A stretch of 62,371 nucleotides of DNA, counting the filler, from Kipferlia bialata (lineage: Eukaryota): assembly GCA_003568945.1 (NCBI GenBank). It is 3 parts of 3 records of this genome, joined end to end, with 100 filler letters (N's around TTAATTAATTAA, not from the genome) between each part and the next. Parts side by side here need not be neighbours in the genome. Positions count along the whole stretch, not along the records: positions 41,674 to 62,371 come from BDIP01000359.1; 2 more parts are not named here. One strand, given 5' to 3'. Below the pieces are notes generated by a model, which worked only from the letters and a program-made list of their open reading frames with translations, was not told the origin of the DNA and did no database searches. This document shows positions 8,804 to 54,012 of the stretch, one piece after another; within the stretch, counting starts at the first letter, position 1; each line of letters starts with the position of its first letter. The position numbers were made by a program, and so were the translations under genes.

Positions 8804-10837
8804 CTAGACCGTAGCTTGTGCAGGGTCAGCTGACTCAGACTCAATCTGGGTCTGAGCACAGTCATTGGAACCGCTGATGGGATGTGTATCCGTGCTAACT
8901 GATATAGACCCTCCTGCTGGGTTGCCCTCTCCCTTTGATGCCCCAGCACCTGGCCCCCTACATGGACATGTATCCACCCTGGCCTCTGTGTCCTGTTCCA
9001 GTACAGTCAGGATGAGCACAAGTATAAGGGCGTAGGGGAGGGGGCAGAAGATGCCTGGGGGGTAGAGACATGCCATACACATATTTATATATATAGATAC
9101 ATACACCCACCTGGGTTGATGCAGGACATCAAGACCAAGAACCCATATGACCCGAAACAGGCAACGGCAAACAGAGACCCCTTCTCATGCACGCATAGCC
9201 TGGTTCTGACGAATATCTGGTACCCATACACCACCACCCCCACGACACCCATACTACCCACTACCTGGACTGGGGCGGAGTGGTACCTGGCGTATGAGGG
9301 GGAGAACAGGAACAGAATCTACCTCACATATGCATCGAGTATATGAATAACAGACACATAGACATGTGCAGAACACCGTACCAATACATCCCGCCCTTCT
9401 TGGGGTAGTAGTACCCCCCTGTGTACCCTATGCCGTGTCCAAACAGCCAGAAGTCCCCTATGCTCTCGAGCAGCGCCTTGAGCATGAGTGCCCTGGGCTC
9501 TGTGTCTGTGTCGGCGTCCTCTATGGTGGAGAGGGTGCCCTCTATCAGGGACAGGATGGAGTCTCTGGCCAGGACCACCAGCACCAACAGCACTCCTAGC
9601 ACACACAGGTGGTGGTACCGGTGGGGCCTGTCCACATACATAAAGACAAGTGTGCAAGCCGGGAAGATGACACCAGCCAGGGTCATGCCACTTCTGGAGG
9701 AGGATATCAACAGGCCGAAGGACATCAGCAGGCCGGACCCCACGCCCAGTGCGTAGTGGGTGTTGGTGCCCCTGGCACAGAGGTGGAAGGAGAAGGGGAG
9801 GCATATGACCATGATGGTACTGACGTTGTTGGACATCTGGCAGTCAAGCACCCGGTACCCGCTGGACACAAACCTGTCCCAGTTGGGTATGTAGTTCTGG
9901 ACCAGCATGTATACTGCAAACAACCCCCAGAGCAGCAGAGAGGAGACCAGCGACTGCCTCTGGCCCTGAGCGTCCTTGGAGAAGAGCACATAGACACCCA
10001 CCATGGCCAGACCCAGGCCCAGGGAGTAGTAGAGGGTCAGGGGCTTGAGGTAGTCGGACCACGACACCACCCCCACCCCTCCTATCAGTAGGGCAGCAGA
10101 TACGGCCACCGAGGCTGGGAAGGTGGGGCCTAGACGGACGGGGCCCTTCTTCCTCCAGTACACCAGATAGTGGAAGAGAATGGCTGCCACGCCTATGGGG
10201 ACAATCTTCCAGAGAGGGAAGAACAAGTCGAAGGAGTCGTACAGCTTGAGGGGGACGGTGGTGGAGAGGAGGAAGGGCAGGAGGGTAGGGTGGGAGGAGT
10301 CACAGACCACAAAGAGGAGACACACCAACAGGTAGAAGAAGACCACCCCTGCCACGGCTAGGTCCAGCCACACAAAGACAGCTGCCACTAGGAAGCAGAG
10401 GAGTCTGAACACCAGAGTGTCACAGCCAGCCCGGGTGGCATCAAGGAGGGCAGTAGCAGAGAGAGTGCTGTCCTTGGTGCCCATACCCTCAACAGGGGCT
10501 GGCTGGTCGGGCACAGACGTGTCCTGGGGTGATACATCTGTATCCACCGCCTGTGGACCCTCTGTCTCTGGGGCAGTCAGAGACCCATCAGACAGATCTG
10601 GGGTGAGGGCACATCTATCACTCTATATCCTGGGTCACACAGGAGCATGTGTATATATACACTCACAATGGTACCCGTACCCTGTTCCTCTAACACACCC
10701 TCTCCTGGGGGCAGAGACGGGGACACGCTCTCCACATCTCCCTCACTCAGTGACACATGGTCAGCTACCACTGTATCCACTTCCCCTTTACACATCCCAG
10801 CATCATCACATGACACCGCAGTCGGACACCCCCCCAT
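8804..10837 (-). CDS. O-antigen ligase (WaaL/Wzy_C)-like polytopic membrane protein
   Basis: Exons are about 10837-10681, 10597-9382, 9286-9111 and 9054-8804; the last three join in frame. There are many TM segments and the motifs ISSSRSG, RALMLKALLESIGDFWLFGHGIG and WYHSAPVQVVGSMGVVG, the last assembled across an intron. Start codon uncertain. Confidence 0.75.
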
Positions 10838-11342: not shown

Positions 11343-12829
11343 TCAGAACACGACGTCCCTGGCCCCCTCCAGTATGGAGGAGAGGGGGAGCTGGGGGGAT
11401 GCCTGGGCCCGTATGTGGGTGTCAGCCGGGCTGTCCTCCCCCAGTAGGTCGAGGCCTGTCTCTCTGTCTGCATCCCCCACCGAGAAGCCCTTTCTCTCCA
11501 GGGTATTCTCCAGTGATGCCACAGCCACACTCATCGACGTCATGCCTGGGATAAGGGGGGGGGGGGGGGGGGGGAGCAGAGGGGGAGGCAGGNNNNNNNN
11601 NNNNNNNNNNNNNNNNNNNNNNNNNNNNNNNNNNNNNNNNNNNNNNNNNNNNNNNNNNNNNNNNNNNNNNNNNNNNNNNNNNNNNNNNNNNNNNNNNNNN
11701 NNNNNNNNNNNNNNNNNNNNNNNNNNNNNNNNNNNNNNNNNNNNNNNNNNNNNNNNNNNNNNNNNNNNNNNNNNNNNNNNNNNNNNNNNNNNNNNNNNNN
11801 NNNNNNNNNNNNNNNNNNNNNNNNNNNNNNNNNNNNNNNNNNNNNNNNNNNNNNNNNNNNNNNNNNNNNNNNNNNNNNNNNNNNNNNNNNNNNNNNNNNN
11901 NNNNNNNNNNNNNNNNNNNNNNNNNNNNNNNNNNNNNNNNNNNNNNNNNNNNNNNNNNNNNNNNNNNNNNNNNNNNNNNNNNNNNNNNNNNNNNNNNNNN
12001 NNNNNNNNNNNNNNNNNNNNNNNNNNNNNNNNNNNNNNNNNNNNNNNNNNNNNNNNNNNNNNNNNNNNNNNNNNNNNNNNNNNNNNNNNNNNNNNNNNNN
12101 NNNNNNNNNNNNNNNNNNNNNNNNNNNNNNNNNNNNNNNNNNNNNNNNNNNNNNNNNNNNNNNNNNNNNNNNNNNNNNNNNNNNNNNNNNNNNNNNNNNN
12201 NNNNNNNNNNNNNNNNNNNNNNNNNNNNNNNNNNNNNNNNNNNNNNNNNNNNNNNNNNNNNNNNNNNNNNNNNNNNNNNNNNNNNNNNNNNNNNNNNNNN
12301 NNNNNNNNNNNNNNNNNNNNNNNNNNNNNNNNNNNNNNNNNNNNNNNNNNNNNNNNNNNNNNNNNNNNNNNNNNNNNNNNNNNNNNNNNNNNNNNNNNNN
12401 NNNNNNNNNNNNNNNNNNNNNNNNNNNNNNNNNNNNNNNNNNNNNNNNNNNNNNNNNNNNNNNNNNNNNNNNNNNNNNNNNNNNNNNNNNNNNNNNNNNN
12501 NNNNNNNNNNNNNNNNNNNNNNNNNNNNNNNNNGGGGGTGGGGGGGGGAGGGGGGGCAGTTACTGACGCCCCATTCCAATACTAGATACTAGCGTGGGTC
12601 ATTTGCGGTGGTGGGTGAGTGCAGCTATGAGGCAATACAGCATGGATGATAGAATTGAAGAAAGAAGCCAGAGGGGGGAGGGGGGGGGGGGGGGGGCTAG
12701 CTCTATGCAAGCACTATACATATACACATGCATCTGTGTGTATCTATGTATGTGTAACAGTGTGCCACTCACCGTCAGTGCCTTGAATGGCAGCTTCTTG
12801 GTCCCAACATCACACTGGGACAGGGACAT
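11343..12829 (-). CDS. Hypothetical gene interrupted by assembly gap
   Basis: A putative first exon MSLSQCDVGTKKLPFKALT is followed by a GTGAGT donor (~12771). A terminal exon MTSMSVAVAS...ARDVVF* follows a CCCAG acceptor (~11546). That both belong to one gene is assumed. Confidence 0.35.
11593..12533. other. Assembly gap (941 N)
   Basis: Run of N flanked by G-rich tracts. Confidence 0.99.
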
Positions 12830-13116
12830 CTCTCACTCTCTCTTCTCTCTTTCTCTCTCTCTACCCTTCTCCTGGTATAGGTTCCTACACTAAGTAGCTC
12901 CTCAGCAGAGTGTTCAGACTAGCCTGCGGTTACCCACGCTGTCTCTACACCCCTGTGATGTATAGAGTGGAGGGCAAGTCAGTTCAGCAAACAATTCCAA
13001 ATTTCAAGATTGTTGGGATTTTTGAGTTAAGGGTGTAGATCTAGATCCAGTCTTGGAATCCAAGTCTTGGATGATTCAAAGGATACATCTTTCTCAGTGA
13101 CAGTGAGAGATCACTT

Positions 13117-13570
13117 ATGGACACCGGTACTGTTCCCCAGATGGACAACCATGGTACTGCTTCCGATATCCAACTTGGTGGTTCTGCTGCAGTTGCCGAG
13201 CCTCTGCCAGAGGGTGGGGATTCGTCCAAGCCTCAACCCTTCCGCATCACCGTTGATAACTACACCTACAGCGGGGCAACCCTTGAGGCCGTGGTCAGTG
13301 AGAGTGCGTGCATCTGGGTATATACACACATTGTTATTATATATTCATAGAGGTGTACGTAGGTCTAGAGAAGAGAGAGGAGAGAGAGGTGGCAGAAAGA
13401 GCAACCACCACATTGTATTCAATTCTGATGGAAGTGAGACGTACGTAGTATGTATCCCTCTCTCTCAAGCCTCCGTCAATGGTATCTCTCTGACACCTCC
13501 AGCCTCCGTCGCCGCCCCCTGATACTCAGCTCTGTAACCTTCAAGGGACTGAGAGCTGCGGGTATTCAGG
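13117..13570 (+). CDS. Hypothetical gene, 5' fragment
   Basis: ORF MDTGTVPQMDNHG...FRITVDNYTYSGATLEAV followed by donor-like sites and a probable further exon ending CAG|GTACAC at 13570. It then runs into a poly-G tract. Confidence 0.3.
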
Positions 13571-13746
13571 TACACCCAATGAACTTATTACGCCCATACA
13601 CCTCTATACACTACAGTACATGTATAATGTTTACAAATGTATACATTCAGAATCAATACAATAATTGTTCTCAGGGGGGGGGGGGGGGGGGGGGGGGGGG
13701 CATTTTAATGACTCATCGTTGTCAGTGACAACGTCACCCAGCTCAC

Positions 13747-38601: not shown

Positions 38602-41031
38602 TTAGTCAAGCTTCAAAGTATGACTGTAGGGCATAATCTTCAAGGCCCGGAAGCGGCCACAGTTCTCGAGGTGCTCTGCCTCGACCCTGAACACGGACCA
38701 GACACCCCTTCTGGTGGCCTCTGCCAATGCAAACAACCACTCCCCCACCACCCCCCACTCCCACACGTGCTGGAGTATCCAGAGGTACCTGCCCACCGTG
38801 TTGTAGACGACTGCGCACCAGTACACATAGGCCGGGTACTGCCTCTGCCGTCCCGACGCCCGCTGCACGCCCAGCACCAGACCCCTTCTGGTCAGGGCCT
38901 GCAGGTGCCCTATGTCCTTGAAGAGGACCCAGTCCTGCCTCAGGTCCCAGAACAGGCGGTACGAGTAGTCGAGGAACTTGAGTCCCATGGCCGCCCACCA
39001 CACCGTGTCGCTATGCAGCCACCCTGGGCCCAGGGACACGTCGTCATGCAGGGCGAAGAGCACGGCGGGGGGTACACCCAGCAGGTACTTCATCAGGTTG
39101 TAGCCATGAGGCCAGAACATGCCCTCGGGCACGGGGGTGGAAGCAAACATGGAGGGGTACGCGTGCTCGGCGCTGGTGGGGGGGAGGGGGGGTGGGACGG
39201 GCACGTCCTGCACGGGTTGGTACATCCGGTCCCGAGGGCGGCGGATGCGCAGGGCGGGCGTCTCAGCCTTGCGCTTCGCCCTCGCAAGCCGAGCCCCTAT
39301 CCTGTCGTCCCTCAGCCTCCGGTAGCACTGCAGGAGCCTGATCACATTGGGCAGCTGTCCCATGACACACGACGACCACACCGCAAACACCTCATTCCCC
39401 ACCGTGAAGCCGGTGCCCAGACCCAGGACCGCCGGCACAGACGAGAATAGCCGCACCAGGTCCGCCCCCACCCCACCCATGCTGGTCCAGACATCGGCGA
39501 TGAAGAAGTCGGGGAAGAGCACCTCGGGGAAGGGGGCACATAGGCACCGCAGGAGTGACCTACGCACGAACAACTTGTACCTGCGAGAGGGGGAGTCCCC
39601 ACGCGAGGCAGCCGCTGCAAACATGCGTCTGGCCGGCCACAGCCAGTAGACGGCATACCCCACCGCCACTATACCCACGAGCTGGTCCCCTGCCAGCCAC
39701 TCGTTCTGGAGGGCAACGGGGACGTGTGCGGCGTTAAGGGGTAGGATATACCCGAGCATCTGCGTGAACCAGGGCGTCATGTCGATCACTAGCTGCTCGA
39801 CAGCGGGGTCCTGCCGAGAGAAGGAGAGCAGGTTAACACTGGCTGTGCAGTACACCACACACGCCAGTACAAAGCCATGGATACACGCCACAAGTAGCAT
39901 CTCCAGCGGCAGCAGCACCTTGGAGGGCTGGATGCCGAAGATAAAGCGCCACGACAGCTGCCCCTTGTCCCAGGCCAGCATGTTCAGAAACACATACACC
40001 CGGTACACGGCCAGTAGACCAAAGGACTGCAGGGCGGCGTCCTGTAGAGGGGACGTGAGCTGTATATCGCCCATGACGTCGTCCTCTGTGTCCAGGACGT
40101 CCTTCAGGGACCAGAACATCGACACCGAGGAGTGGATGGAGATCACTAGGCCGAGTATGAGGCCCATCAGCAAGCCAGACAACAGACCCGCAGACGTCGC
40201 GGATCGTGCCGTGTGGTGCTCAGACCTCTGCTGGTAGTGGCTCGAGAGGAAGTGGCGTGTCTTCTCGACCCTCGCGTGGCCGGTGAGACCTGGGAGAAAG
40301 AGGTCTGCCGTGGCTGCAATGAGGCTGTGCTCCAGATGCTCCACAGTCACACCGAGGCTGTCGAACCCTTTCAGTCGCTCGTCACACCACGCACGCATGG
40401 AGCCATCACCTTCGAGTGTCCCGTCTCCGACACTGACACCCACATCAACGTCAAACGACCGAGCCAGAGTGCCCACAATCTGCTGGTTGATGACGCCGAA
40501 GTCGTGAATGATGGACACACCCCGGTGGAACTCAGAGAGCAGGACTCTGAGCTCTACACATCGGTCGGAAGCAACATCCTCCAGAGATAGGGGCAGGGTA
40601 GTGCATATCTCGTCAAACCGAGCCTGCGCAGACACGCACTGCTCTCCCGCAAAGCGTATGCACTTGTCAATCTCCTGCGCCATCTCAGACACGAACCTGT
40701 CTCTCAGGTTGATGAACTCCGTGGAGATAGGGGCGTGGCTGCCCCTTCTTGCCTTAATAAGCCCCTTCAATAGGGGCTCGAAGGACGACGGGTCCACGCA
40801 TTGAGAATGCAGCTCTGCGGGGATGTTGCTAAGAGCAGACATCGACCAGGCCTAACAGCGTAGAGACCAACCCCGGATATATAGACCTACTGTGACTACA
40901 GTGATGATGAATCACACACGGCAAGTACACACAGAGAGAGAGTGCGTACGAGGTGTATATATGCCACAGAAAGAGTAGACACAACACACCTTGATGAACC
41001 CTGAGCGGACAGGGCACTGGTAGGGTCTAGC
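38602..41031 (-). CDS. XPR1: SPX-EXS phosphate exporter family protein (XPR1/SYG1/PHO1-like)
   Basis: A 2.25-kb terminal exon (38602-40851) plus an in-frame 42-nt upstream exon at 40990-41031 (ARPYQCPVRSGFIK). EXS motifs: PFPEVLFPDFFIADVWTSM, RLLQCYRR, NLMKY, WDLRQDW, EATRRGVWSVFRVEAEHLENCGRFRA. The N-terminus is SPX-like (EMAQEIDKCIRF, DFGVIN). Confidence 0.88.
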
Positions 41032-41573: not shown

Positions 41574-41673
41574 NNNNNNNNNNNNNNNNNNNNNNNNNNN
41601 NNNNNNNNNNNNNNNNNTTAATTAATTAANNNNNNNNNNNNNNNNNNNNNNNNNNNNNNNNNNNNNNNNNNNN
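41574..41673. other. Artificial contig linker N44-TTAATTAATTAA-N44
   Basis: Same 100-nt linker as at 20748; 12-mer at 41618-41629. Confidence 0.95.
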
Positions 41674-41691
41674 TGAGTGTCTTACCCCCAG

Positions 41692-42591
41692 GCATGTACG
41701 AGATGAATGATGATGGAGAGTACACCTATGAGGGACTGTACAGTTGGATGCTTCCCTTTAGCGGCAGGTATATCTCTACTCTAGTATTTCTATTACCGGA
41801 CTATCGCTATGCTCTGCAACTCCCTATTCTCTCTCTTCTCGTTCTCCTTCTACCCCCTTATAACGTCAGATCAAGTGCTCTGTGTGTGTCCTTACAGGGT
41901 CATCTGGTGATAGTGGGAGGTGCGGAGATGGATATATGAACACGCATATATGTATGTATGTAAATGTGTGTGTGTGTGATGATCGCTGTAGTAAGTGTTG
42001 ATATGTTTGCATATCTATAGGTGTATGAGAGAACTGACATTTAGGACACGATCAAGTCTGTAACCCTGTGAGGGAATACTCTCTTTCTCTCTTTCTCTCT
42101 CTCTCTCTCTCTTACGCAAGGTCATGACCAAGCCTGTATTCCAGTGCTTGAGCTGTATCTTCAATCACTACAGAGGATATTTATACATATATATGTGTGT
42201 GTGTCTAGTCTAAGAGAGATACTCATCCTAAGGCAATGACCAAGCCTGTAACCCTGTCATGGAGGGTGTGAGTGACTAATAGGAGTCTCTCTCTATCTAT
42301 TCATATCTATTTCTCTCTTATATTAGGTTATGATCAAGCCTGTAACCCTGTCATGGAGGGAGTGAGTGTGTACAACCCAGAGACGGACAAGTGGAGGGTC
42401 GGTGACCCAAGGTATGTACAAACATGTATATGTATACATATATATTTATAGAGTACATATACAGCATACATATCCAGTGTGTATCATAGTCTGATGGACT
42501 GGTCTGTCTTGTTTTTTGTTCTTTCCCTCTCTCTCCCCCTCAATGTAAGTATAGAATATTCCTCAACCCTATCCCCTTGAGTGCTATGATG

Positions 42592-42639
<48 letters not shown>

Positions 42640-44354
42640 ATACCCCAGTCCCCTTGAGTGCTATGATGACACCCACTACACTGTGGTTGATGACACCCTC
42701 TATGTATACCCCACATGGGATACAACAGTTATGAGGTATGGTAGTATGTATATATATAAGTATATATACATGTATTATATGTATATTTATATATATATAT
42801 ATACACCACATGGGATACAACAGACATGAGGTATGGTACACTGTATATATGAGTATATATACACTGTATACCATAGATATGTACACATATATACTGGGTG
42901 TATGCCAAACATGGGATATAACAGACATGAGGTAAGAGACGAGAGAGAGGTTCATATATAGTATTTTACTAGTGTATACAAACATATACCCCACATAGGA
43001 CATAACGGACAGGTAGGGAAGCATTGTGTAGATATAGACACATATATAGGGGAAGCTTTATGTAGATATGAACATATATACATATGTACTTATATGCCCG
43101 ACATGGGTCACAACGGACAAGATGTGAGTCAGTATACACGAGAGTTTGCCGAAAAGGACATGGCTTCAGTATATGGATAAATTCTCTCTAACCTCAGTGT
43201 CTACACCCTTAAGTTGGGCCAGGGTGTTGATCAGGATGACATGGGCACTACGTATATATATGTACTCTGCTACTCTACATCTATATTTAATATGAGTCTG
43301 ATACCAGTGTGTACAAGCTCACTCTTGGTCAAGGTCTTGATAAGGATGACATGGGGACTGATGGGGGTGGTCTATATGGAGACAAGTGGGAGACAGTGGG
43401 GTTGGCTAGTCTGCCATGTGCAATTAGAGAGGAGTTACTCGGCGTGACTCAGGTTAGTATGTATATATACGTGTGTGTGTGTGTCTCAGATTGGTATGTA
43501 TATAGTAGTATATACGATTAGTATATAGATGGATTTATATAGTATACTACTCGGTATGCGCTCAGGTAAGTGTGATAGTAATGATATACTACAGTTAAGT
43601 ATACTGTATCCGTATAATGCTGGTGAATGCTAGATCATCTAAGTATGTATACTTGTTGTATATTGGTTATGATTCCCCATAATACTCACTCCAGTCAGTT
43701 GGCAGGCAGGTTCTCTCCTATGATGGGAATCTGACAGTGCGGGATAAGGTATGTATCTGGTAGAGAATATTTTGTAATACATTCACTCTATGATAATGCG
43801 AGTGTAACCACTATTCAGGCAACGTGATGCTGTCAATATATAGTCTACCATTGTCTAATCAACAGGTCAGTGGAGAGACGACAGTCTACCAGGGACCCGA
43901 GAGAACCCAAGATGTGAGTGGCGAAATGTGTTTTCATACTGTGTAATTAGTGGCTTCTCACTCTTGTTTCTCATTAGTTGTTATGCATACTCAAATTGTC
44001 CTCCAATCACTTCAATGATTATTCTCATATTATACTCTAATTGTCCCCTAATTATGCTCTGTGTATGGTCTGATTATAGGATTATGCTCGATATTCACTC
44101 TGATAATAGGATGAACACACACCCCTGTACGTTCCGATAGCGAGTGGAGAGTCAGGTACAACATATAGTTGTAATTAATGTATAGTATTGAGATTTAGGT
44201 AGGGTCGTGTATGGATATGGTCGGTGTATGGTACTGTGCTAACTCTTCAGGTATGCTATTCAGAGAGAGAGAGGACGAGGGTGAGAGTAGCGATGGTCCT
44301 CTGCTTGTGGCCAGAGCCCTGCCAGAGATGCTGTACCCACAGAGTGTAGAGTGA
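41692..44354 (+). CDS. Divergent kelch-like protein, 3' part (multi-exon)
   Basis: Exons include GHLVIVGG, GYDQACNPVMEGVSVYNPETDKWRVGDP and TVVDDTLYV. The final exon ...LVARALPEMLYPQSVE ends in TGA at 44352-44354. Confidence 0.5.
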
Positions 44355-44577
44355 TTCATAGTATGAATCATACCGTTTAATGGAGTTGATGGACAGTGTA
44401 TCAAAAGTCAGGGGTATTAAGAAAGGGCCCTGCCTGAGATGCTGTATCCACAGAGTGTAGAGTGATTCAAAGTATGAATCATACCGTTTAAAGGAGTTGA
44501 TGGACAGTGTATCAAAAGTCAGGGGTATTAAGAAAGGGTCCTGCCTGAGATGCTGTATCCACAGAGTGTAGAGTGAT
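44316..44577 (+). repeat. 111-bp tandem repeat x ~2.4 spanning the stop codon and 3' UTR
   Basis: Units start at 44316, 44427 and 44538 (G(C/T)CCTGCCwGAGATGCTGTAyCCACAGAGTGTAGAGTGAT...). Confidence 0.92.
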
Positions 44578-44739
44578 ACTCATCCTATTATGGAATCACA
44601 ATAGAGAGTTTGTAACAATATTGACTCTGAGATGCTATCACTTTCTGATTTGAGGTATACAAGAAATGTGGGATTTGAGAGTATGCGGACTGCAATTTGC
44701 GGTTGTGTTATGAAATTTACAATGTGAAAATCTCACCCA

Positions 44740-45828
44740 CCACATTGTGGCACTTGCCTTAATAGTGTTAAGTATTTACTGAGTGCCCTCATGACTTTCT
44801 TTGAGTGAAGGAATCCTTGACGTACGCACTAGAGCTGCACAGCCTCTAACGTCAAGTCTCTCTCCGCTGTCTTCATCTGTTGCAGTGGTAACTAGTGATA
44901 CAAGTCTTGAACTTTGTATCACAAACTGCAAATGTGTCAATACTCTCAACTGTGTCCAGTGGACACTGTCCACTCATGTACTGTGTGTCACGCTTGTACT
45001 CTAACTAGTCCGGACAGTTCAGTCCTCGATGCACACACGGGGGCTTAGCACATCTGAGAGCATCTAGTAGAAGATCTACCATGACCATGTCTCTGTTGTC
45101 AGGAGAATCCCAACCTGAGTCAGACTCAGCTGTTCTCAGGCCCTGAGAACAGTGTTGTCAGATTCTGACTCAGAACAGCATAGTGATTTCATCTCAATGA
45201 TATCACACTAGTAGTGTGATCGCTCCTGATCGCTGCGTAGTCTACGCAGCGAATAGTGTGTACTACGTACTGGATAGCCAAGCCAACTTGGCTCACTAAT
45301 ACCATATTGAATATGTTAAATATGCCACTGCCCTGTATTGTTTTGCGGCTGTGAATAATTGTGACTCATAACGCTATAAGGGTTCGTATATTGCATATAC
45401 TATATACTGTTCTTCGAAACTGGTTCAGTTGCTAAACACTAGTTCTTGGTTGCATTCCAGTGACTGGAGTCTGGTTTCCAGACCAAAGGAAGACAGGACG
45501 GCATAGAGTCACTCTATTAGAGTGAGAGAGAGCACTGTTCCGACACCTTTGCACGAATACGAATACATTTCATACACTATATCTAATACATCAGATAACA
45601 CATGAGACATTGATGAGTATCTTGTTGTTGTACCACTAGTGGTAGTCTACCATGGTAACCAGGATGGTTAAGTCAGTCACTTAGGCTTCCCCCACTGGCC
45701 CAGTGGAATTGGGCCCCCAAACGCTGGAGTTACAATGAAACACCATATCACAGGCAAGGGCAGTTCCAGTGGAACTGTTCCACTAAGACAACGGCTGGTT
45801 AAGTTAACCAGGTTAACACAACTTGTGT
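44740..45828. other. Intergenic array of chained short inverted repeats (palindrome-dense tract)
   Basis: About 20 perfect dyads with 5-11 bp arms, mostly with a 1-nt centre. Examples: CTGTTCTCAGG-C-CCTGAGAACAG (45130-45152), TCGCTGCGTAG-T-CTACGCAGCGA (45230-45252), ATCACACTA-G-TAGTGTGAT (45202-45220). Confidence 0.9.
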
Positions 45829-46034
45829 CAAGCTAGCCCAATAATATAATTTGAGTTTGTTCCTATTCTCTGCCTATAGGTTAGTAAATACATCTCGCCG
45901 CGTCTTGCATCTATCTACCACCATTCGAATGATGCCATCTATTGAGTACCAATTTGATACTACTATAGACTGACTAATAGTAACGCAGCATCATTAATAA
46001 ATCGTCACACACTTCACACAATATACGCGGGGAC

Positions 46035-46038
<4 letters not shown>

Positions 46039-46078
<40 letters not shown>
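46039..46078. repeat. (TC)n microsatellite
   Basis: Pure TC run directly downstream of the stop codon of the minus-strand gene. Confidence 0.9.
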
Positions 46079-46081
<3 letters not shown>

Positions 46082-46085
46082 CACC

Positions 46086-46481
46086 CTATGTGCAGTAGAT
46101 GGGCATGTACTCATTGCGGGTGCCAGTCAGTCTCTTCACAGTGCGTCTGGGGGTAAGGATACGATGAGTATATAGATCTACAAATATATATGTAAAAAAA
46201 TAATACCTGTGCCTGGCTCTAAAAATTATCATGTATATTATGGAAATGGTACATATATATACCTGTGCCTGGCTCTTGAGCAGCAGCACCCACAGGCACA
46301 TGACAGGACACCAGTGGCAATGAGGGCAAGGAGGACAAAGATGATCTGATATAAGGGGCTAGAGGGAGACACACAGAGAGATAGAGCCAGTCCTAGTACC
46401 TTCTTGGGAGAGAGAGAGTAAGAGAGAGATAGAGAAGGAGAGCACCTTTCTAGGAGATGGGAAGCCAGGCAGCACAAGAGC

Positions 46482-46537
<56 letters not shown>

Positions 46538-48075
46538 AAGAGATAGAGATAGAGACTTACATTGACTGAGCTGAGTATGGACTAAGAGAGAGCAAGAGAG
46601 AGAGTACCTTCTTTGGGGATGGGTAGCCAGGCAACATAAGAGCTATATATATGTATAGAGAGAGAGAGAGAGAGTAAGAAAGAGAGGGAGAGTACCTTCT
46701 TTGGGGATGGGAACCCAGGCAGCACAAGGGCAGTCTCCATGCCTGGGGGTGACGAATTAGACAGCTAAAAACGAGTATATACTATATACATATGAATATA
46801 GGGGTAAGGGGACACGGCACTTGACTCCTTATCGACGACAAAATTGAGGGAGGATAGTATTTAGAGTGTATTGATAGTAGTACCTGTTGTCTTTCCCACT
46901 GCCTGCACGTCGTATCCCCCATCGACATAGTGGTTCCTGGTCTCCTGTATCTCGTGGCCAAGGTCTCCACCCAGGTGTCTATAGGTGAGAAAGAGTACAG
47001 TAATTATGACAACTATATATATATATATATATATGCGTAAATTGACATATATGATATTGATGGCCAAGGTCTCCACCCAGGTGTCTATAGGTGAGGGGAT
47101 GGAATGTGTGTGACAATGCTCTATTGTATGCAAATAAACATGGAGTGCTAATTGCTACACATTTCGTACCTGTAGTGGAACAGGTCTGATAGGGTAGAGG
47201 GGTCAACTAATAATGTATACGTGTGTGTGTGAGAGAGTGAGAGTGTAGACACACAATCCTGTAATACTGTATTATGTATATATGTCTATATACCTGTGGC
47301 GGAACAGGTCTGACAGGGTGGAGGGGTCAACACCCATCTTGGCAATGGACTGGGGTGAGACGGGGATATATACATAGAGAGAGAGGGAGAGATAGAGTAT
47401 ATACCTCCTCCTTAGTCATCACTCTGCCAGTCTTCATGTCACTGCTGTAGAACACAGCTAGGGCAGAGTCAATCAGGGGGAACAGACCCGCTCCTGATTG
47501 TGAGCTTCAAGTAAATGAATATACATATATATACATATATATATATATATACATATAGGGCAGAGTCAATCAGGGGGAAGAGACCGGCGCCTGAGAGTGA
47601 GTATCAGTAAATGTATGTATAGCAACATACCAATAGTCCAATATATATATATATATATACTCATGGTTACAGTTGCATCATTACCTAGTGGCATGTACTC
47701 TGCAATGATGGCCTCTACCCACTTGTCACCCTGGGGTAAATAAGGGTCTAGATATATATATATATATATAGTGAGATATATATGTAAAAAGAGCCTTCGG
47801 TTGACTGCAGGTTTAAGGTGGAGAGAGAGAGGGGGGGGGGGGGGATGCAATAGTACCTGCAGGTTTGATGGGCTTCGCGTTGTAAAAGCAGAGATAGTAT
47901 ATAGTGTGGGTAACAAGGAACACACTCAGAGTTTGTTGACAATCAGTACACATCGATATGGCAGTTAGAATATGTAAAGGGAGACGGTACATGTATACAC
48001 TGGCTGGCACCTGTCCTTCACAGCCACCTTGGCCAGAATGGCAGTGACTAGAGCCAGGGCAATGACAAGGCGCAT
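46086..48075 (-). CDS. Type I membrane protein: signal peptide, single TM, Cys cluster, YxxPhi tail
   Basis: Begins MRLVIALALVTAILAK (ATG 48075). The last exons give IIFVLLALIATGVLSCACGCCCSRARHR / RTVKRLTGTRNEYMPIYCT-TAG. The exon structure near 47860-48010 is uncertain. Confidence 0.65.
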
Positions 48076-48551
48076 ATATGGTGATCGAAGAGAGATGAGT
48101 GGAGTAGGGTCTGTCACGCGAGGAGTATATTGAAACGATAAGGGGGCAGTGTTAGTTATGAAGATGTGGTTCACCGCGGTTCAACGTCCAATGAATTGTC
48201 TCTCTCTCTCTCAGTACCCTGTGGTGAGGCATATAGATAGACTCACCTTCTTCCAAGGCAGCTGCGGCAATACATAACCATCCAGCAACTACCGACAAGC
48301 CCCCAAAGATACCGACCCCACTCGAGATAGAGCCAGTACAGTAGAAGACCAAATATCTATTTGGTCAAACCAATACAACAACATAATACACAAAACTAAT
48401 ACAGTGCCAATCTTGAGGTGGAATTGGCATCTCTCTATCAATCACTCCCGCTCCAATATGTTGGGTAGACGCGAGTAATGCCTATTGTCTCTCTCCCTTC
48501 ATTCGTGTCACCCTGACCCGTGTCACTCATCTGTGGCCTGACAGTACCAAA

Positions 48552-50902
48552 CTAGCAGGTCTTGGAGAAGTCCTGGGGTGAGGGTGGGGAAGAGCAACAC
48601 CTTATATATATATAAACTATGTGTCTCTATATATCAGGGTCTCTCTCTCACTTACTCTCTATCCATATACATACCTGATGAGTGACCAGTGTGACATCTG
48701 CCGCTGCTGCCATGGCTAGATCTGCCATATATCATACATATACTATATATACATATACTATACATATATATATATATACTGTACCTGATGAGTAACCAGT
48801 GTGACATCAGCAGCTGCTGCTGCCATGGCTAGATCAGCCAAATAATATCATACACACATACATGTACTCTATATACTATATCTCCCATATATACTAATAC
48901 ATATATATATACATATATACCTGATGTGTCACTAATGTGACATCAGCTGCTGCTGCTGCCATTGCTAGATCAGCCACAGTGCAGTTCATACGGGAGGGGG
49001 AGGGGGTGGCCCTGGGAGTATGAGAAGATAGAACATACATCAGTGTAGTATAAGGGGTGTATACATAATAGAGAGGGAGAGAGAGATAGCAAGAGTGCAG
49101 TTCATACGGGAGGGGGAGGGGGTGGCCCTGGGGGTGAGGCATCTGAAATACATGTCTATAGTCTATGGAGTATACACAATAGAGGGAGAGAGAGATATAT
49201 AGTAAGAGGGTCAGTTCATACGGGAGGGGGAGGGGGTGGCCCTGGGGGTGAGGCGTCTAGAATACATCAGTGTAGTATAAGGGGTATACACAATAGAGAG
49301 AGAGAGAGAGATATAGTAAGAGTGCAGTTCATACGAGAGGGGGTGGCCCTGGGGGTGAGGTGTATTACATACATCACTGTACACTACATATGGAGATGTA
49401 CATACCTGATAGAGACTGTGGGCTGATCTGTGCTCAGGGGCACTCCCTCCATGCTGTCGGTGCCCCTGGACACCTCAGACATTCTGGGGGGTTGGATATG
49501 GTGTAATAGACTATAAGAGTATATGTGAGTATGTATAAACAAGATGCTGTCGGTGCCCCTGGACACCTCAGACATTCTGGGGGGTTGGATATGGAGTAAT
49601 AGACTATAAGTATATATATGACATCCTGGGGGTTGAATTAGCCACAGTGACTGGTGCTATATTGCATAGTTCACATGAATAGTGTATATACAATAGTACT
49701 TCCATCCGCATATCCATACCTCTCTGCCACCGTGACCGGTGCTGTGTGTGTGTATGCCATCAATGCATTATATCTATATATATATATATATATGCATACA
49801 TCACTTGATACCTCTCTGCCACAGTGACTGGTGCTGTGTGCTGGGCATGTCATCAATGCATTATGTATATACACTATATATATATATACTATCCACCATA
49901 CCTCTCTGCCACTGTGACTGGTGCTGTGTGTCTGTTGTGCCTGGCCTCCATACATTATATATATACTATGTATATATATATATATACATACATACCTCTC
50001 TGCCACCGTGACTGGTGCTGTATGGGGTATGTGCCTGGCCTCACCGGATATAGGTAGAGACAGACGGGCAGGGGCTGGGGGTTAGACTATTCAAGGAATC
50101 ACACATACAGTAGGCGCACCATATATACCCACAGTTTACCTCCGGTCCACATCCAATGTCAGTGTAATGGAGCATATACAGTGTATATAGAAACTACACA
50201 CCTTCTGGATCCGGTCCACACCCCATGTCTATGTATAGAGTCTTGTATATATATACATACGCACACACACATATATATACATATATATATCACACATCAC
50301 ACACCTTCTGGATCCGGTCCACACCCCATGTCTGTACCGGTGGATGTGGAGGTGCCTACTGGGGGTCAGTGTGATAGAGAATATTGGATCATCTGTAACA
50401 ACTAGCGACTAGAAACCGAACACAATCCACACCTGACGACGGCCTAGTGGTGATTGGCTCCATGACACTCCCCCTCTCTCTCTCTCCCCTACTGCCACTG
50501 AATGAATATAGGTCATTCCACTCCCGAGAGGTGCTACGGTGCGCAGAGGCTGGGGTCAAAGATACATTTACATCCTCATAAACACGATATACAAGATCTA
50601 AGACAGAGAAAGAGAGTGCATCAGATGCTGCGGTGCGCAGAGGCTGGGATCAGGGGAAAAGGATCGTGATGCATACACATATATACTATAGTGATACGTG
50701 GAAAATGAAATAGAGAGATTATTACAAGTGGAGGTGCTACGGTGCGCAGAGGCTGGGGGGTGAGGATACGGTCAATGACTATACTCTACAATATATCATA
50801 AGTATCATCCCCCTCCCTACCTGCCTCCCTCATCCTGTGCCTGTCACTGTCTCTGACTGTGCCCCCTGCCATGACACGGTCAATCTCAGCCCTGATAGTG
50901 TT

Positions 50903-50939
<37 letters not shown>

Positions 50940-51930
50940 TCCATTAAAATAGTCACGGTCAATCTCAGCCCTGGGGTGAGAGAGAGAGAGAGAAAGAGAC
51001 TGGATACGTAACAGAGAGAGTGTATATATCTGACTGTGTCATGACTCGGTCAATCTCGGCCCTAGGAGGGTGAGACACATACAAATACAAGCATAATTCC
51101 CATAGCGACGCCATGAGGAAGTATCAATGCACACCTTAGCACATTGGTGAGCCCTAGCTCCCTCTGTCCCCCCTCCAATCTGTGGGATGCAATACCTGAG
51201 GGGGTGGCACCCAGACCAACCTTGAGGCCCATGCCTAAGGGGTTAGATGGTTATATACACAGTGTATTACACAATAGTAACTACTCTATATACACCTATG
51301 CCCACCTTGAGGCCCATGCCTGGGGGGTTAGATGGTGTATATATACGGTTACGAATACAGGGGGAAAGACCTGATATATACTCATTCCCACCTGGCTGTC
51401 CGTCAATACCACCCAGCATATCGACAGTATAGATACACTGACTGTATGTATACATATATACACACAATACTATACACACATACCTGGCTGTCCGGCTGTC
51501 GTTGCATGTATAGTATATGATTAATGACTGTATATATACATATATACACACCACCCTATACTGATTCCTACCTGGCTGTCCGTCTATGCCCCCCAGCATG
51601 TCGTTGTAGGCATCCAGCTTGGCACCCTGGGGGTGAGGGTGTGTATAGATACACATATGCATATATATACCCTACCTGAATGGGTGCTGTCCACTGGTTG
51701 TGTCTCATGTGCTCCTCTGTGAAGCCGGCACCCTTCATCTCGTACCAGCCCTAGGATGAGTGCAATGTATATATGGAAACTCTCTTTGTATGTATGTTTA
51801 TATGTATATAATAATATATACATATGCAAATACACTCATACCTGCACTGGCCTCCTAGTCCTGTCTCTCTCAATGTCTCTCATGCATGTCTGCAGGTGGT
51901 TCTCATCCATCCTGGGGTTACTTCAATATC

Positions 51931-51970
<40 letters not shown>

Positions 51971-54012
51971 ATATATATGTTATCATCCATCCTGGGGGGT
52001 TATATAGAGGTGTATACAAATANNNNNNTATATGTTATCATCCATCCTGGGGGGTTATATAGAGGTGTATACAAATACATGATACTATTATATACATGTA
52101 TATACATATGTGAATATATACATGTCTGCAGGTGGTTCTCATCCATTCTGGGGGGTTAGGGATTCAAGTATACAATGATAATACACATATATATACACCT
52201 CAACTGACTCGGCGTTCTGGGACCACTTGCAACTATCACATAGAATGTGTGTCCGCTGTGTACAACATATAATATATACTATATATAATAACACATATGC
52301 GCATGAATATATATACCTGAGTTGGCTGAGGATGCTTGTTGTGTTGGCCAGCATCTTGCCAGAGGCACCGTCCTTGAGGTTGACCTGGGGGGTCAGTGTC
52401 AGTATAAGTATCAGGGAAAGTGTCAATAACAAAACACTCTTATATATGAGGACATAGGCTGTCTGTATATATATAACACATATTTATACACGTGTATCAA
52501 TACCTCCAGACTAGGCACCCCAGGTGCAGTTGCATTCATGCCAGAGGGACGGCGGCTGGGGGGTGAGAGGGGGAAATACAAATAGCATCCTTAAAGAACT
52601 ATGCCCATCGTGTATTACATATACTGTATACATACACATATGTATATATCACACCCACCTTGCTAGTGTCTCCAACAGGTCTCTATGCCTCTGCACAGGG
52701 ACTGAGGTGACAGGACGCTGGGGGGTGGCTGGGGGGTTAGAGAGGAACATCATCTATAGTAGGACGCATAATATCCAGATCCATCCATACATCCCCTTGT
52801 CAGTCTCCTTGTCCCCTCTCTCTCTCCATCTCTCTCTCTCTTCACATATACTACACTACTACTATGCATACCTCCCCCCTTGTCTGCCTCCTTGTCCTCT
52901 GTCTGTCTACTACGCATGGCACCCCTAGATGGTGAGATATGTAGGTACACATACACACACACACATAGGTGAGATAAACAACAAATACATATATATACAC
53001 CATTGATGTACATATACATTCATATTTATACATATACTACGCATGGCACCCCTGGGAGGTGAGATATGCAAACACATTCAGATAACACCACTATGGTATC
53101 AATAATCACTGGTTATACACATAGAGAAATGGGTGGCGCTGGGGGAGGGAGGGATGGGGGGTGGGCAGATATGGACACAATACAATACATGTGGTACATC
53201 TATATACACTGATACTACATATCTATATACAACACACCTACTGAGTGACCGTGTGAGTGGGCTGATCCCTGGGCCAGTCGAGTAGTAGCTCCTGGGGGTC
53301 AGTGATGTATGGATGTAGTATATATACACACATACATACCTATATGTACATATGTATACATATATCATACCTGGGTGTCCTCTCCCTTATCCTGCCGGCC
53401 TTGATGGGGGCCCTGTTGGTGCGGCTGGGGTAAGAAGACACGCATATATATATATATATATATGTATAGGGGTATATATGAAATCTCACTCTGTGTCTGA
53501 TACTACCTGATGGGTTGGTGCGGCTGGGGAAAGGTACAGAAGTACAGACATAAACTCAAGGTACATATGTATACAATCTCATACATATATATATATATAT
53601 ATATGTATGTATTAACATCCACCACTTGATGTGACTTGTCCGGGGTCCCATCGTGTCCCTACACATACTCCATGCATATATATGTATATATTATTAGACT
53701 AATAAACACACTCACTTTATGTGCACTGTCCTGGGTCCCATCGTGTCTCTCACTCCTCTGACCACAGGCTTTCCCCTGATTAAGGGGATCTCCCTGGGGG
53801 CCTGGGCTAGGGCCTAGGATGGTGAGATGATCATATCGAAAAGAAATCTATCATGAATATAACATGTAATATATACTTGTAGATAGACACAAAGGGTTGT
53901 AACATACCGTATATAATATATACGGTATATACTATATATGTAATATACAGTATATACCTTAGCGATCTCTGCCTTTCTGGCCTTGTGGGGGTCAGGGGGG
54001 GCACGTCTTCGT
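48552..54012 (-). CDS. Multi-exon hypothetical protein (5' end missing), introns crowded with partial exon copies
   Basis: Traceable exons include VNLKDGASGKMLANTTSILSQLR, GAKLDAYNDMLGGIDGQP, HTAPVTVAER, MSEVSRGTDSMEGVPLSTDQPTVSIR, ATPSPSRMNCTVADLAMAAAAADVTLVTHQ and DFSKTC*. Confidence 0.55.

Follow-up and report, generated by a model that had tools for sequence, protein, structure and literature searches.

What process could have chained overlapping palindromes with single-base centres in one gene-free gap of the Kipferlia bialata genome, and what would have confined it there? The window, that is, the whole stretch of 62,371 nucleotides analysed, is eukaryotic in character, with many short GT-AG introns and microsatellites. 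It consists of three separate contigs (1-20747, 20848-41573 and 41674-62371, of 20,747, 20,726 and 20,698 bases), between which stand N-padded 12-base AT linkers (20748-20847 and 41574-41673); since the contigs so joined are unrelated, adjacency across the linkers is artificial. The palindromic tract sits on the third contig, and we consider it likely that a hAT-type cut-and-paste transposon repeatedly entered and left a single gene-free gap, the tract being the set of footprints so produced.

The initial annotation had placed the tract at 44740..45828, between two convergent genes. The tract is real, but the feature begins earlier, with an exact scar at 44355-44373, and the scar-bearing part of the gap extends over 44355-45828 (~1.5 kb). 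Convergence is borne out by spliced joins at 44151>44247 (GT..AG) and 46146>46263 (CT..AC) in run X2, which is guessed to be RNA and comes from the same sample in another study. The gap, the genes that border it and a local duplication are as follows:

44355..46085, no strand assigned: convergent intergenic gap of ~1.73 kb with the scar hotspot, delimited by RNA-contig joints, translation (frames inferred) and palindrome density per 200 bp
44251..44354, plus strand: final exon of the gene on the left, stop at ~44350-44354, frame inferred
46086..46146, minus strand: probable final coding exon of the gene on the right, stop at ~46086-46088, frame inferred
44313..44577, plus strand: tandem duplication with a 111-bp unit, ~2.4 copies, 95% alike, including the copied 44355 scar

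The tract is single-copy and non-coding, with an ordinary G+C content of 0.45, and shares with the rest of the window only short, scattered 11-mer matches. As previously claimed, a long ORF is absent, no stop-to-stop frame of at least 70 aa being present in 44580-46088. The earlier argument against a folded RNA also holds, with no Rfam match at E<=1 in 43500-47000 and no tRNA gene called by ARAGORN in the window; RNA folding of the tract gave strings of short hairpins, a result that is uninformative for want of a shuffle control at tract length. One X2 contig covers 45653-46030 at depth 28, with a depth of ~3 in the middle of the tract and ~400 for the right gene's spliced contig; the coverage of 45653-46030 is possibly 3' read-through, contig depth being unable to rank expression. 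In the neighbouring regions 41676-43100 and 46400-53600, near-copies of the ends of neighbouring short exons lie within or beside many introns, which suggests intron gain or growth by tandem duplication.

The density of dyads in 44740-45828 was compared with 400 dinucleotide shuffles. One-base-centred palindromes with arms of at least 6 bases number 20, against a shuffle mean of 0.43 and a maximum of 3, and those with arms of at least 7 bases number 13 (mean 0.12, maximum 2), so the claimed excess over dinucleotide-shuffled sequence is confirmed. All dyads listed in the initial annotation were recovered at their positions, and most have the single-base centre ascribed to them; those at 45631-45644 and 45648-45657 lack one. 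Palindromes with loops of 0, 2 and 4-7 bases occur at background (for loop 0, 1 palindrome against 0.32 expected), the loop-3 class is slightly elevated (6 vs 0.95 at arms of at least 5), and spaced inverted repeats are mildly raised (12 vs 4.9, maximum 11 in 40 shuffles). The longest palindromes have arms of 11 bases and occur twice (45130-45152 and 45230-45252), while ~10 further odd palindromes, with arms of 6-11 bases, stand alone. Recognisable palindromes with arms of at least 6 occupy 270 of the 1089 tract bases, and about three quarters of the tract is not recognisably palindromic. The remaining 55,799 unmasked bases of the window hold 21 odd palindromes against 20.0 +/- 4.5 in 20 local shuffles, which makes the enrichment local. 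Fifteen other hand-set intergenic stretches (5,483 bases) likewise show no clear excess, with 5 odd palindromes of arm at least 6, and 4, 3 and 4 palindromes with loops of 0, 2 and 3.

Beyond its density, the tract obeys a precise grammar. For an n-base word S, the chains read S[1..n-1], then the reverse complement of S, then S[2..n]. In 44300-45900 this rule is matched exactly four times at n=8 (44952, 45503, 45762, 45796; uniform-base expectation 6e-6) and twice at n=7 (44355, 45157; expectation 1e-4), and never at n=5, 6 or 9-12; outside that interval the window contains no exact scar of n=7-12. In all six tract-region triplets both centre bases are the complement of the word's outer base, with a centre spacing of 6 or 7. 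When up to two mismatches are allowed, n=8 gives 7 matches against 0.03 and n=7 gives 6 against 0.25 (60 shuffles), some of these overlapping single palindromes and one being a tandem copy. Direct repeats of at least 5 bases peak at period 14 (9 vs 1.2), the spacing expected from the 22-base scar form, and no even-centred triplet occurs in the tract. Collapsing the exact scars exposed no hidden older scar, and so no sign of nesting, in any of the six. The inferred target words all differ from one another; they agree with the Hermes word nTnnnnAn at 5/8 positions (p=0.046), a weak match drawn from only four sites, and an A-N-T context surrounds 12/22 palindrome centres (p=0.016), also weak given the small numbers. 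The individual scars and palindromes are listed below, with no strand assigned:

44952..44973: exact 22-base scar, chain-rule match, inferred 8-bp target GTGTCCAC
45503..45524: exact 22-base scar, chain-rule match, inferred 8-bp target ATAGAGTG
45762..45783: exact 22-base scar, chain-rule match, inferred 8-bp target AGTTCCAC
45796..45817: exact 22-base scar, chain-rule match, inferred 8-bp target TGGTTAAC
44355..44373: exact 19-base scar (7-bp word), immediately after the left gene's inferred stop
44466-44484: one-substitution copy of the 44355 scar
45157..45175: exact 19-base scar (7-bp word)
45061..45079: 19-base scar carrying a single mismatch, which falls beside the second centre within the inverted copy
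45651..45669: 19-base scar with one mismatch, positioned as in 45061-45079
45386..45407: candidate decayed 22-base scar with two mismatches, both adjoining the first centre
45115..45152: a pair of lone odd palindromes that abut each other, with arms of 7 and 11
45202..45315: four odd palindromes standing alone, with arms of 9, 11, 6 and 6
45456..45468: single odd palindrome, arm 6
45631..45706: mixed chain of an even palindrome (arm 7), an odd one (6), an even one (5), the 45651 scar and an odd one (7)
45816..45828: lone odd palindrome with 6-base arms, directly adjoining the final 22-base scar
44880..44931: spaced inverted repeats in a nest, 7-bp repeats enclosing 9-bp repeats that in turn enclose an odd palindrome with 4-bp arms

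The abutting palindromes at 45115..45152 are likely one-sided hairpin products, and the nested repeats at 44880..44931 are possibly an older palindrome that was hit again. In the decayed scars at 45061-45079, 45651-45669 and 45386-45407, three cases only, the mismatches directly adjoin a centre. This explains part of the loop-3 excess, and the tips of hairpins may be mutable or prone to error. At 45115-45136, a 10-base and an 8-base piece are the reverse complements of adjacent pieces in 45164-45179, in swapped order, an arrangement across 45115-45179 that suggests either repeated hits or a repair event of greater complexity. The 7-bp scars could stem from 7-bp duplications that arise now and then, from 8-bp sites where the cut fell further out by one base, or from a second family. 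Elsewhere in the window, on another contig, a near-exact 22-base scar lies at 13051-13072, just upstream of a small ORF and with its second centre not complemented, and one-mismatch 7-bp forms lie at 13195-13213 and 13717-13737, close to a 941-base N gap (11593-12533); the 13051-13737 group is a possible second, weaker cluster.

The 111-bp tandem duplication copied the 44355 scar, which must therefore predate it. One of the copies has since changed and decayed scars lie beside exact ones, so the events were probably spread over time. This history bears on the chimera warned of in the initial annotation, here taken as fold-back artefacts of amplification or end repair, a reading that we regard as extremely improbable: a scar copied by tandem duplication and since diverged, and the existence of decayed scars, both speak against it, as does the assembly evidence. 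In run X1 the tract forms one unbranched contig of 1513 bases at depth 452, with the flanks at 417 and 408, and shows no variant, joint or loose end inside 44578-46030, while three X2 contigs match parts of the tract without difference. In favour of an artefact, X1 is the sole DNA run with the tract and may be the source of the assembly itself, so its contig does not constitute independent support, and the tract was matched in no second isolate. Runs X3 and X4 contained nothing matching the region, and a 28-base tract word went unmatched in metagenome scans.

The fixed 7-base centre spacing, together with the complemented centre bases, points to an 8-bp duplication and to hairpins offset by one base, from which the following sequence of events may be proposed. 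Insertion would duplicate an 8-bp target S, after which the excising transposase would nick one base into each flank and seal each flank as a hairpin. A nick so placed would give a palindrome with, at its centre, the complement of the base that bordered the element; the left flank would yield S1-S7 and then the reverse complement from S8, and the right flank would be the mirror case. A host nuclease would open the hairpins away from the tip, leaving 3' overhangs that would be complementary because both flanks carry S. These overhangs could anneal via S and, after fill-in, would produce S[1-7] + revcomp(S) + S[2-8], leaving the site 14 bases longer regardless of where exactly the hairpins were opened. 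If one end were trimmed first, a single odd palindrome with arms of 6-11 bases would result. In a host that its lineage suggests to be Ku-less, the microhomology route would dominate, hence the uniform product. The full 22-base product is a deduction from this hairpin model, and the literature search found no published display of it.

The tract carries both sequence marks of a hAT excision footprint, the one-base complemented centre and the 8-bp duplication; membership in that class is incomplete, since no element was found. The weak points of the hAT model are that a third of the exact scars have a 7-bp word, above the strict 8-bp expectation, and that the two even palindromes and the loop-3 class would require extra steps. 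A toy simulation of the hAT rule yielded the observed spectrum by construction and is informative only against two rivals as parameterised.

Published hAT systems provide the closest parallels. Target duplications of the superfamily are reported as mainly 8 bp (PMC5499845), and one Ds insertion with a 7-bp duplication is recorded (PMC1978519). The Ac/Ds footprints described in plants, S. cerevisiae and C. albicans resemble the tract in their 8-bp (rarely 7-bp) duplication, their microhomology joining and their complemented centre, each palindrome having at its centre the complement of the base that adjoined the element, and arms of a few to ~20 bases (up to 20 nt in budding yeast, mostly with microhomology; PMC5873905), and they are explained by a flank hairpin that is opened and then rejoined (PMC5873905, PMC1978519). 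As presented in those reports, Ac/Ds footprints are heterogeneous, mostly short and derived from one engineered donor site, whereas in the tract the full double-hairpin product dominates and the scars are natural and fixed in contigs, with ~20 in 1.5 kb and the element gone. Hermes and TcBuster also share 8-bp targets and flank-hairpin footprints with the tract, and the Hermes preference, given as nTnnnnAn (PMC10368747, PMC2803484), is weakly matched. Repair in their hosts is attributed to Ku-dependent end joining (PMC10368747, PMC2803484, PMC3499496), and, unlike these systems, the tract is accompanied by no element, inverted end or transposase found in the window. K. bialata is listed without Ku70 or Artemis and with PolQ, Mre11 and FEN1 (PMC8516963 and its Supplementary Data 2). 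With such a repair set, overhangs would tend to be longer and joining would tend to use microhomology.

V(D)J coding joints, with their P nucleotides, and Transib footprints likewise arise from flanks that are sealed as hairpins and opened away from the tip. The hairpins of the RAG/Transib type are flush, however, and yield palindromes that lack a central base, along with 5-bp duplications, neither of which is enriched in the tract: loop-0 palindromes are at background, and neither an even triplet nor an exact n=5 scar is present. A toy simulation of flush hairpins, run with our own parameters, failed to give the observed spectrum. The idea of hairpin-intermediate footprints, as first put forward, thus survives in its hAT form, with an 8-bp duplication and a one-base offset, and not in its RAG form, for which the even-centre enrichment is lacking.

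A transposon would be unnecessary if the scars had arisen by template switching or fold-back at a fragile site, through PolQ snap-back or small inverted triplications, and the missing element would then be of no consequence; we regard this origin as rather unlikely. Local template copying in yeast does generate the same direct-inverted-direct layout (PMC13334657), breaks are reported to yield short inverted insertions (PMC11724301), and K. bialata is listed with PolQ (PMC8516963). The yeast products differ from the tract in their larger and variable pieces, their spacers of tens of bases and their need for pre-existing inverted microhomology (PMC13334657, PMC11724301). Inverted triplications have a median spacer of 30 bp and an inverted piece of 20 bp to kilobases (PMC13334657), fold-back spacers are set by pre-existing repeats, with a 41-nt loop in one report (PMC11724301), and the products shown in these accounts have no one-base spacer or fixed 8-bp word. 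The initial suggestion of iterative fold-back synthesis fits less well on account of its spacers, which are varied and larger than the one-base centres of the tract. In the tract, loops of 4-7 bases do not exceed background, and words of 7-8 bases predominate. A toy simulation of fold-back (2-4-bp microhomology, own parameters) scattered its palindromes across loops 3-7 without producing a single exact scar. Finally, FEN1, whose loss promotes inverted triplications, is listed as present in K. bialata (PMC8516963).

Another enzyme that seals flank hairpins with the same one-base offset, whether a MULE, an uncharacterised 7-8-bp family (Merlin or other) or a domesticated Kat1-like transposase, is a distinctly unlikely author of the scars. 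MULEs such as Muta1 place the hairpin on flanking DNA, and their duplications (8-9 bp for Muta1, 8-10 bp for MULEs) include the size seen here, but Muta1 excision is mostly precise, in >90% of events in yeast (PMC5499845), and exact 9- or 10-bp scars are absent from the tract. Merlin elements duplicate 8-9 bp; among 24 metamonad genomes they are reported only in Preaxostyla, and the main text of that report does not mention a hairpin step (PMC8101967). Kat1 is a domesticated hAT enzyme able to cut one locus (PMC4763223), and the tight local confinement of the scars would suit a targeted enzyme of this kind; a site-specific enzyme would, however, reuse one target word, and the inferred targets all differ.

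The agent itself was sought throughout the window. A Pfam scan detected no hAT, BED, MULE or Transib transposase domain in any of the 334/334 stop-to-stop frames of at least 70 aa, a search that a transposase split over short exons could escape, and the same domains were absent from 23 window ORFs; the nearby hAT/Transib-like transposases for which the initial annotation proposed a search were not encountered. A CxC2 match (E=0.009) was dismissed, being below the cut-off and antisense to an EXS gene. The window yielded 18 candidate pairs of inverted ends with 7-9-bp duplications, mostly AT-repeat or intron-end sequence, and none had an end in the tract. With no transposase or element end in the 62-kb window, we infer the transposon and its enzymes from the scars. 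Neither an occupied nor an empty allele appeared in the X1 and X2 contigs, which represent one sample and in which rare variants are dropped. The literature search turned up no report of such footprints densely clustered in nature and no description of hAT elements in metamonads, absences that are unproven because most subscription journals lay outside its coverage; in its available text, the K. bialata genome paper does not discuss transposons, the sole mention concerning Trichomonas (PMC5874029).

The protein scans also drew attention to genes outside the tract. A long open frame at 9324-10547 on the minus strand matches an O-antigen ligase (Wzy_C, E=5e-10), which is unusual for a eukaryote and possibly reflects lateral transfer. 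The EXS-family gene at 38602-40842 (minus strand; 746 aa) is intronless amid an otherwise intron-rich genome; the search for relatives returned EXS itself only, with none among the scored candidates, and metagenome scans were empty. For a kelch ORF of the window, the only relative found was a Kipferlia bialata protein, at 31% identity, which is in keeping with Kipferlia or a near fornicate relative as the likely host.

The chemistry of hairpin footprints is already known, and what distinguishes this locus is their concentration in one convergent intergenic gap. Selection of the dyads as a cruciform-forming centromere or replication origin is very improbable. Short dyads are enriched at many centromeres (PMC5889037), the tract is single-copy and non-coding, and the gap is ~3x the mean intergenic length of K. 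bialata, 596.5 bp (PMC5874029). The dyads counted in the centromere study, however, allow spacers of up to 20 bases (PMC5889037), and cruciform selection would impose neither a one-base centre nor an 8-bp word nor complemented centres; the overlapping dyads are mutually exclusive, G+C is ordinary, and the genes on both sides of the gap are spliced. At most, a centromere or origin could account for where the scars are, and not for their grammar.

For the hAT footprints, candidate causes of the hotspot are short-range re-insertion, growth of the target with each scar and chromatin-guided targeting. Short-range re-insertion is a behaviour of Ac. The most probable account is that insertions are tolerated in the gap and that every scar makes it a larger target, with short-range re-insertion helping; as the 15 other intergenic stretches have no clear excess, tolerance alone may not suffice. 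A bolder and unlikely proposal is that of a landing pad, in which a locus-targeted hAT-like transposon or a domesticated hairpin-forming enzyme would revisit one site, perhaps a centromere or origin, each visit adding 14 bases in a Ku-less cell, until a functional chromosome element had been built from scars.

If the hAT reading is correct, the history of DNA transposons could be read from scars alone after the elements have gone, each 22-base scar recording a target word, a cutting offset and a repair route. One spot would then log many past jumps and the manner in which this cell mended hairpin-sealed breaks. It would also predict that protists lacking Ku and Artemis channel hairpin repair into a single microhomology product, and would indicate past hAT-type activity in the fornicate lineage. 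The local pile-up of scars raises the question of what attracts or tolerates repeated insertion at such a site.
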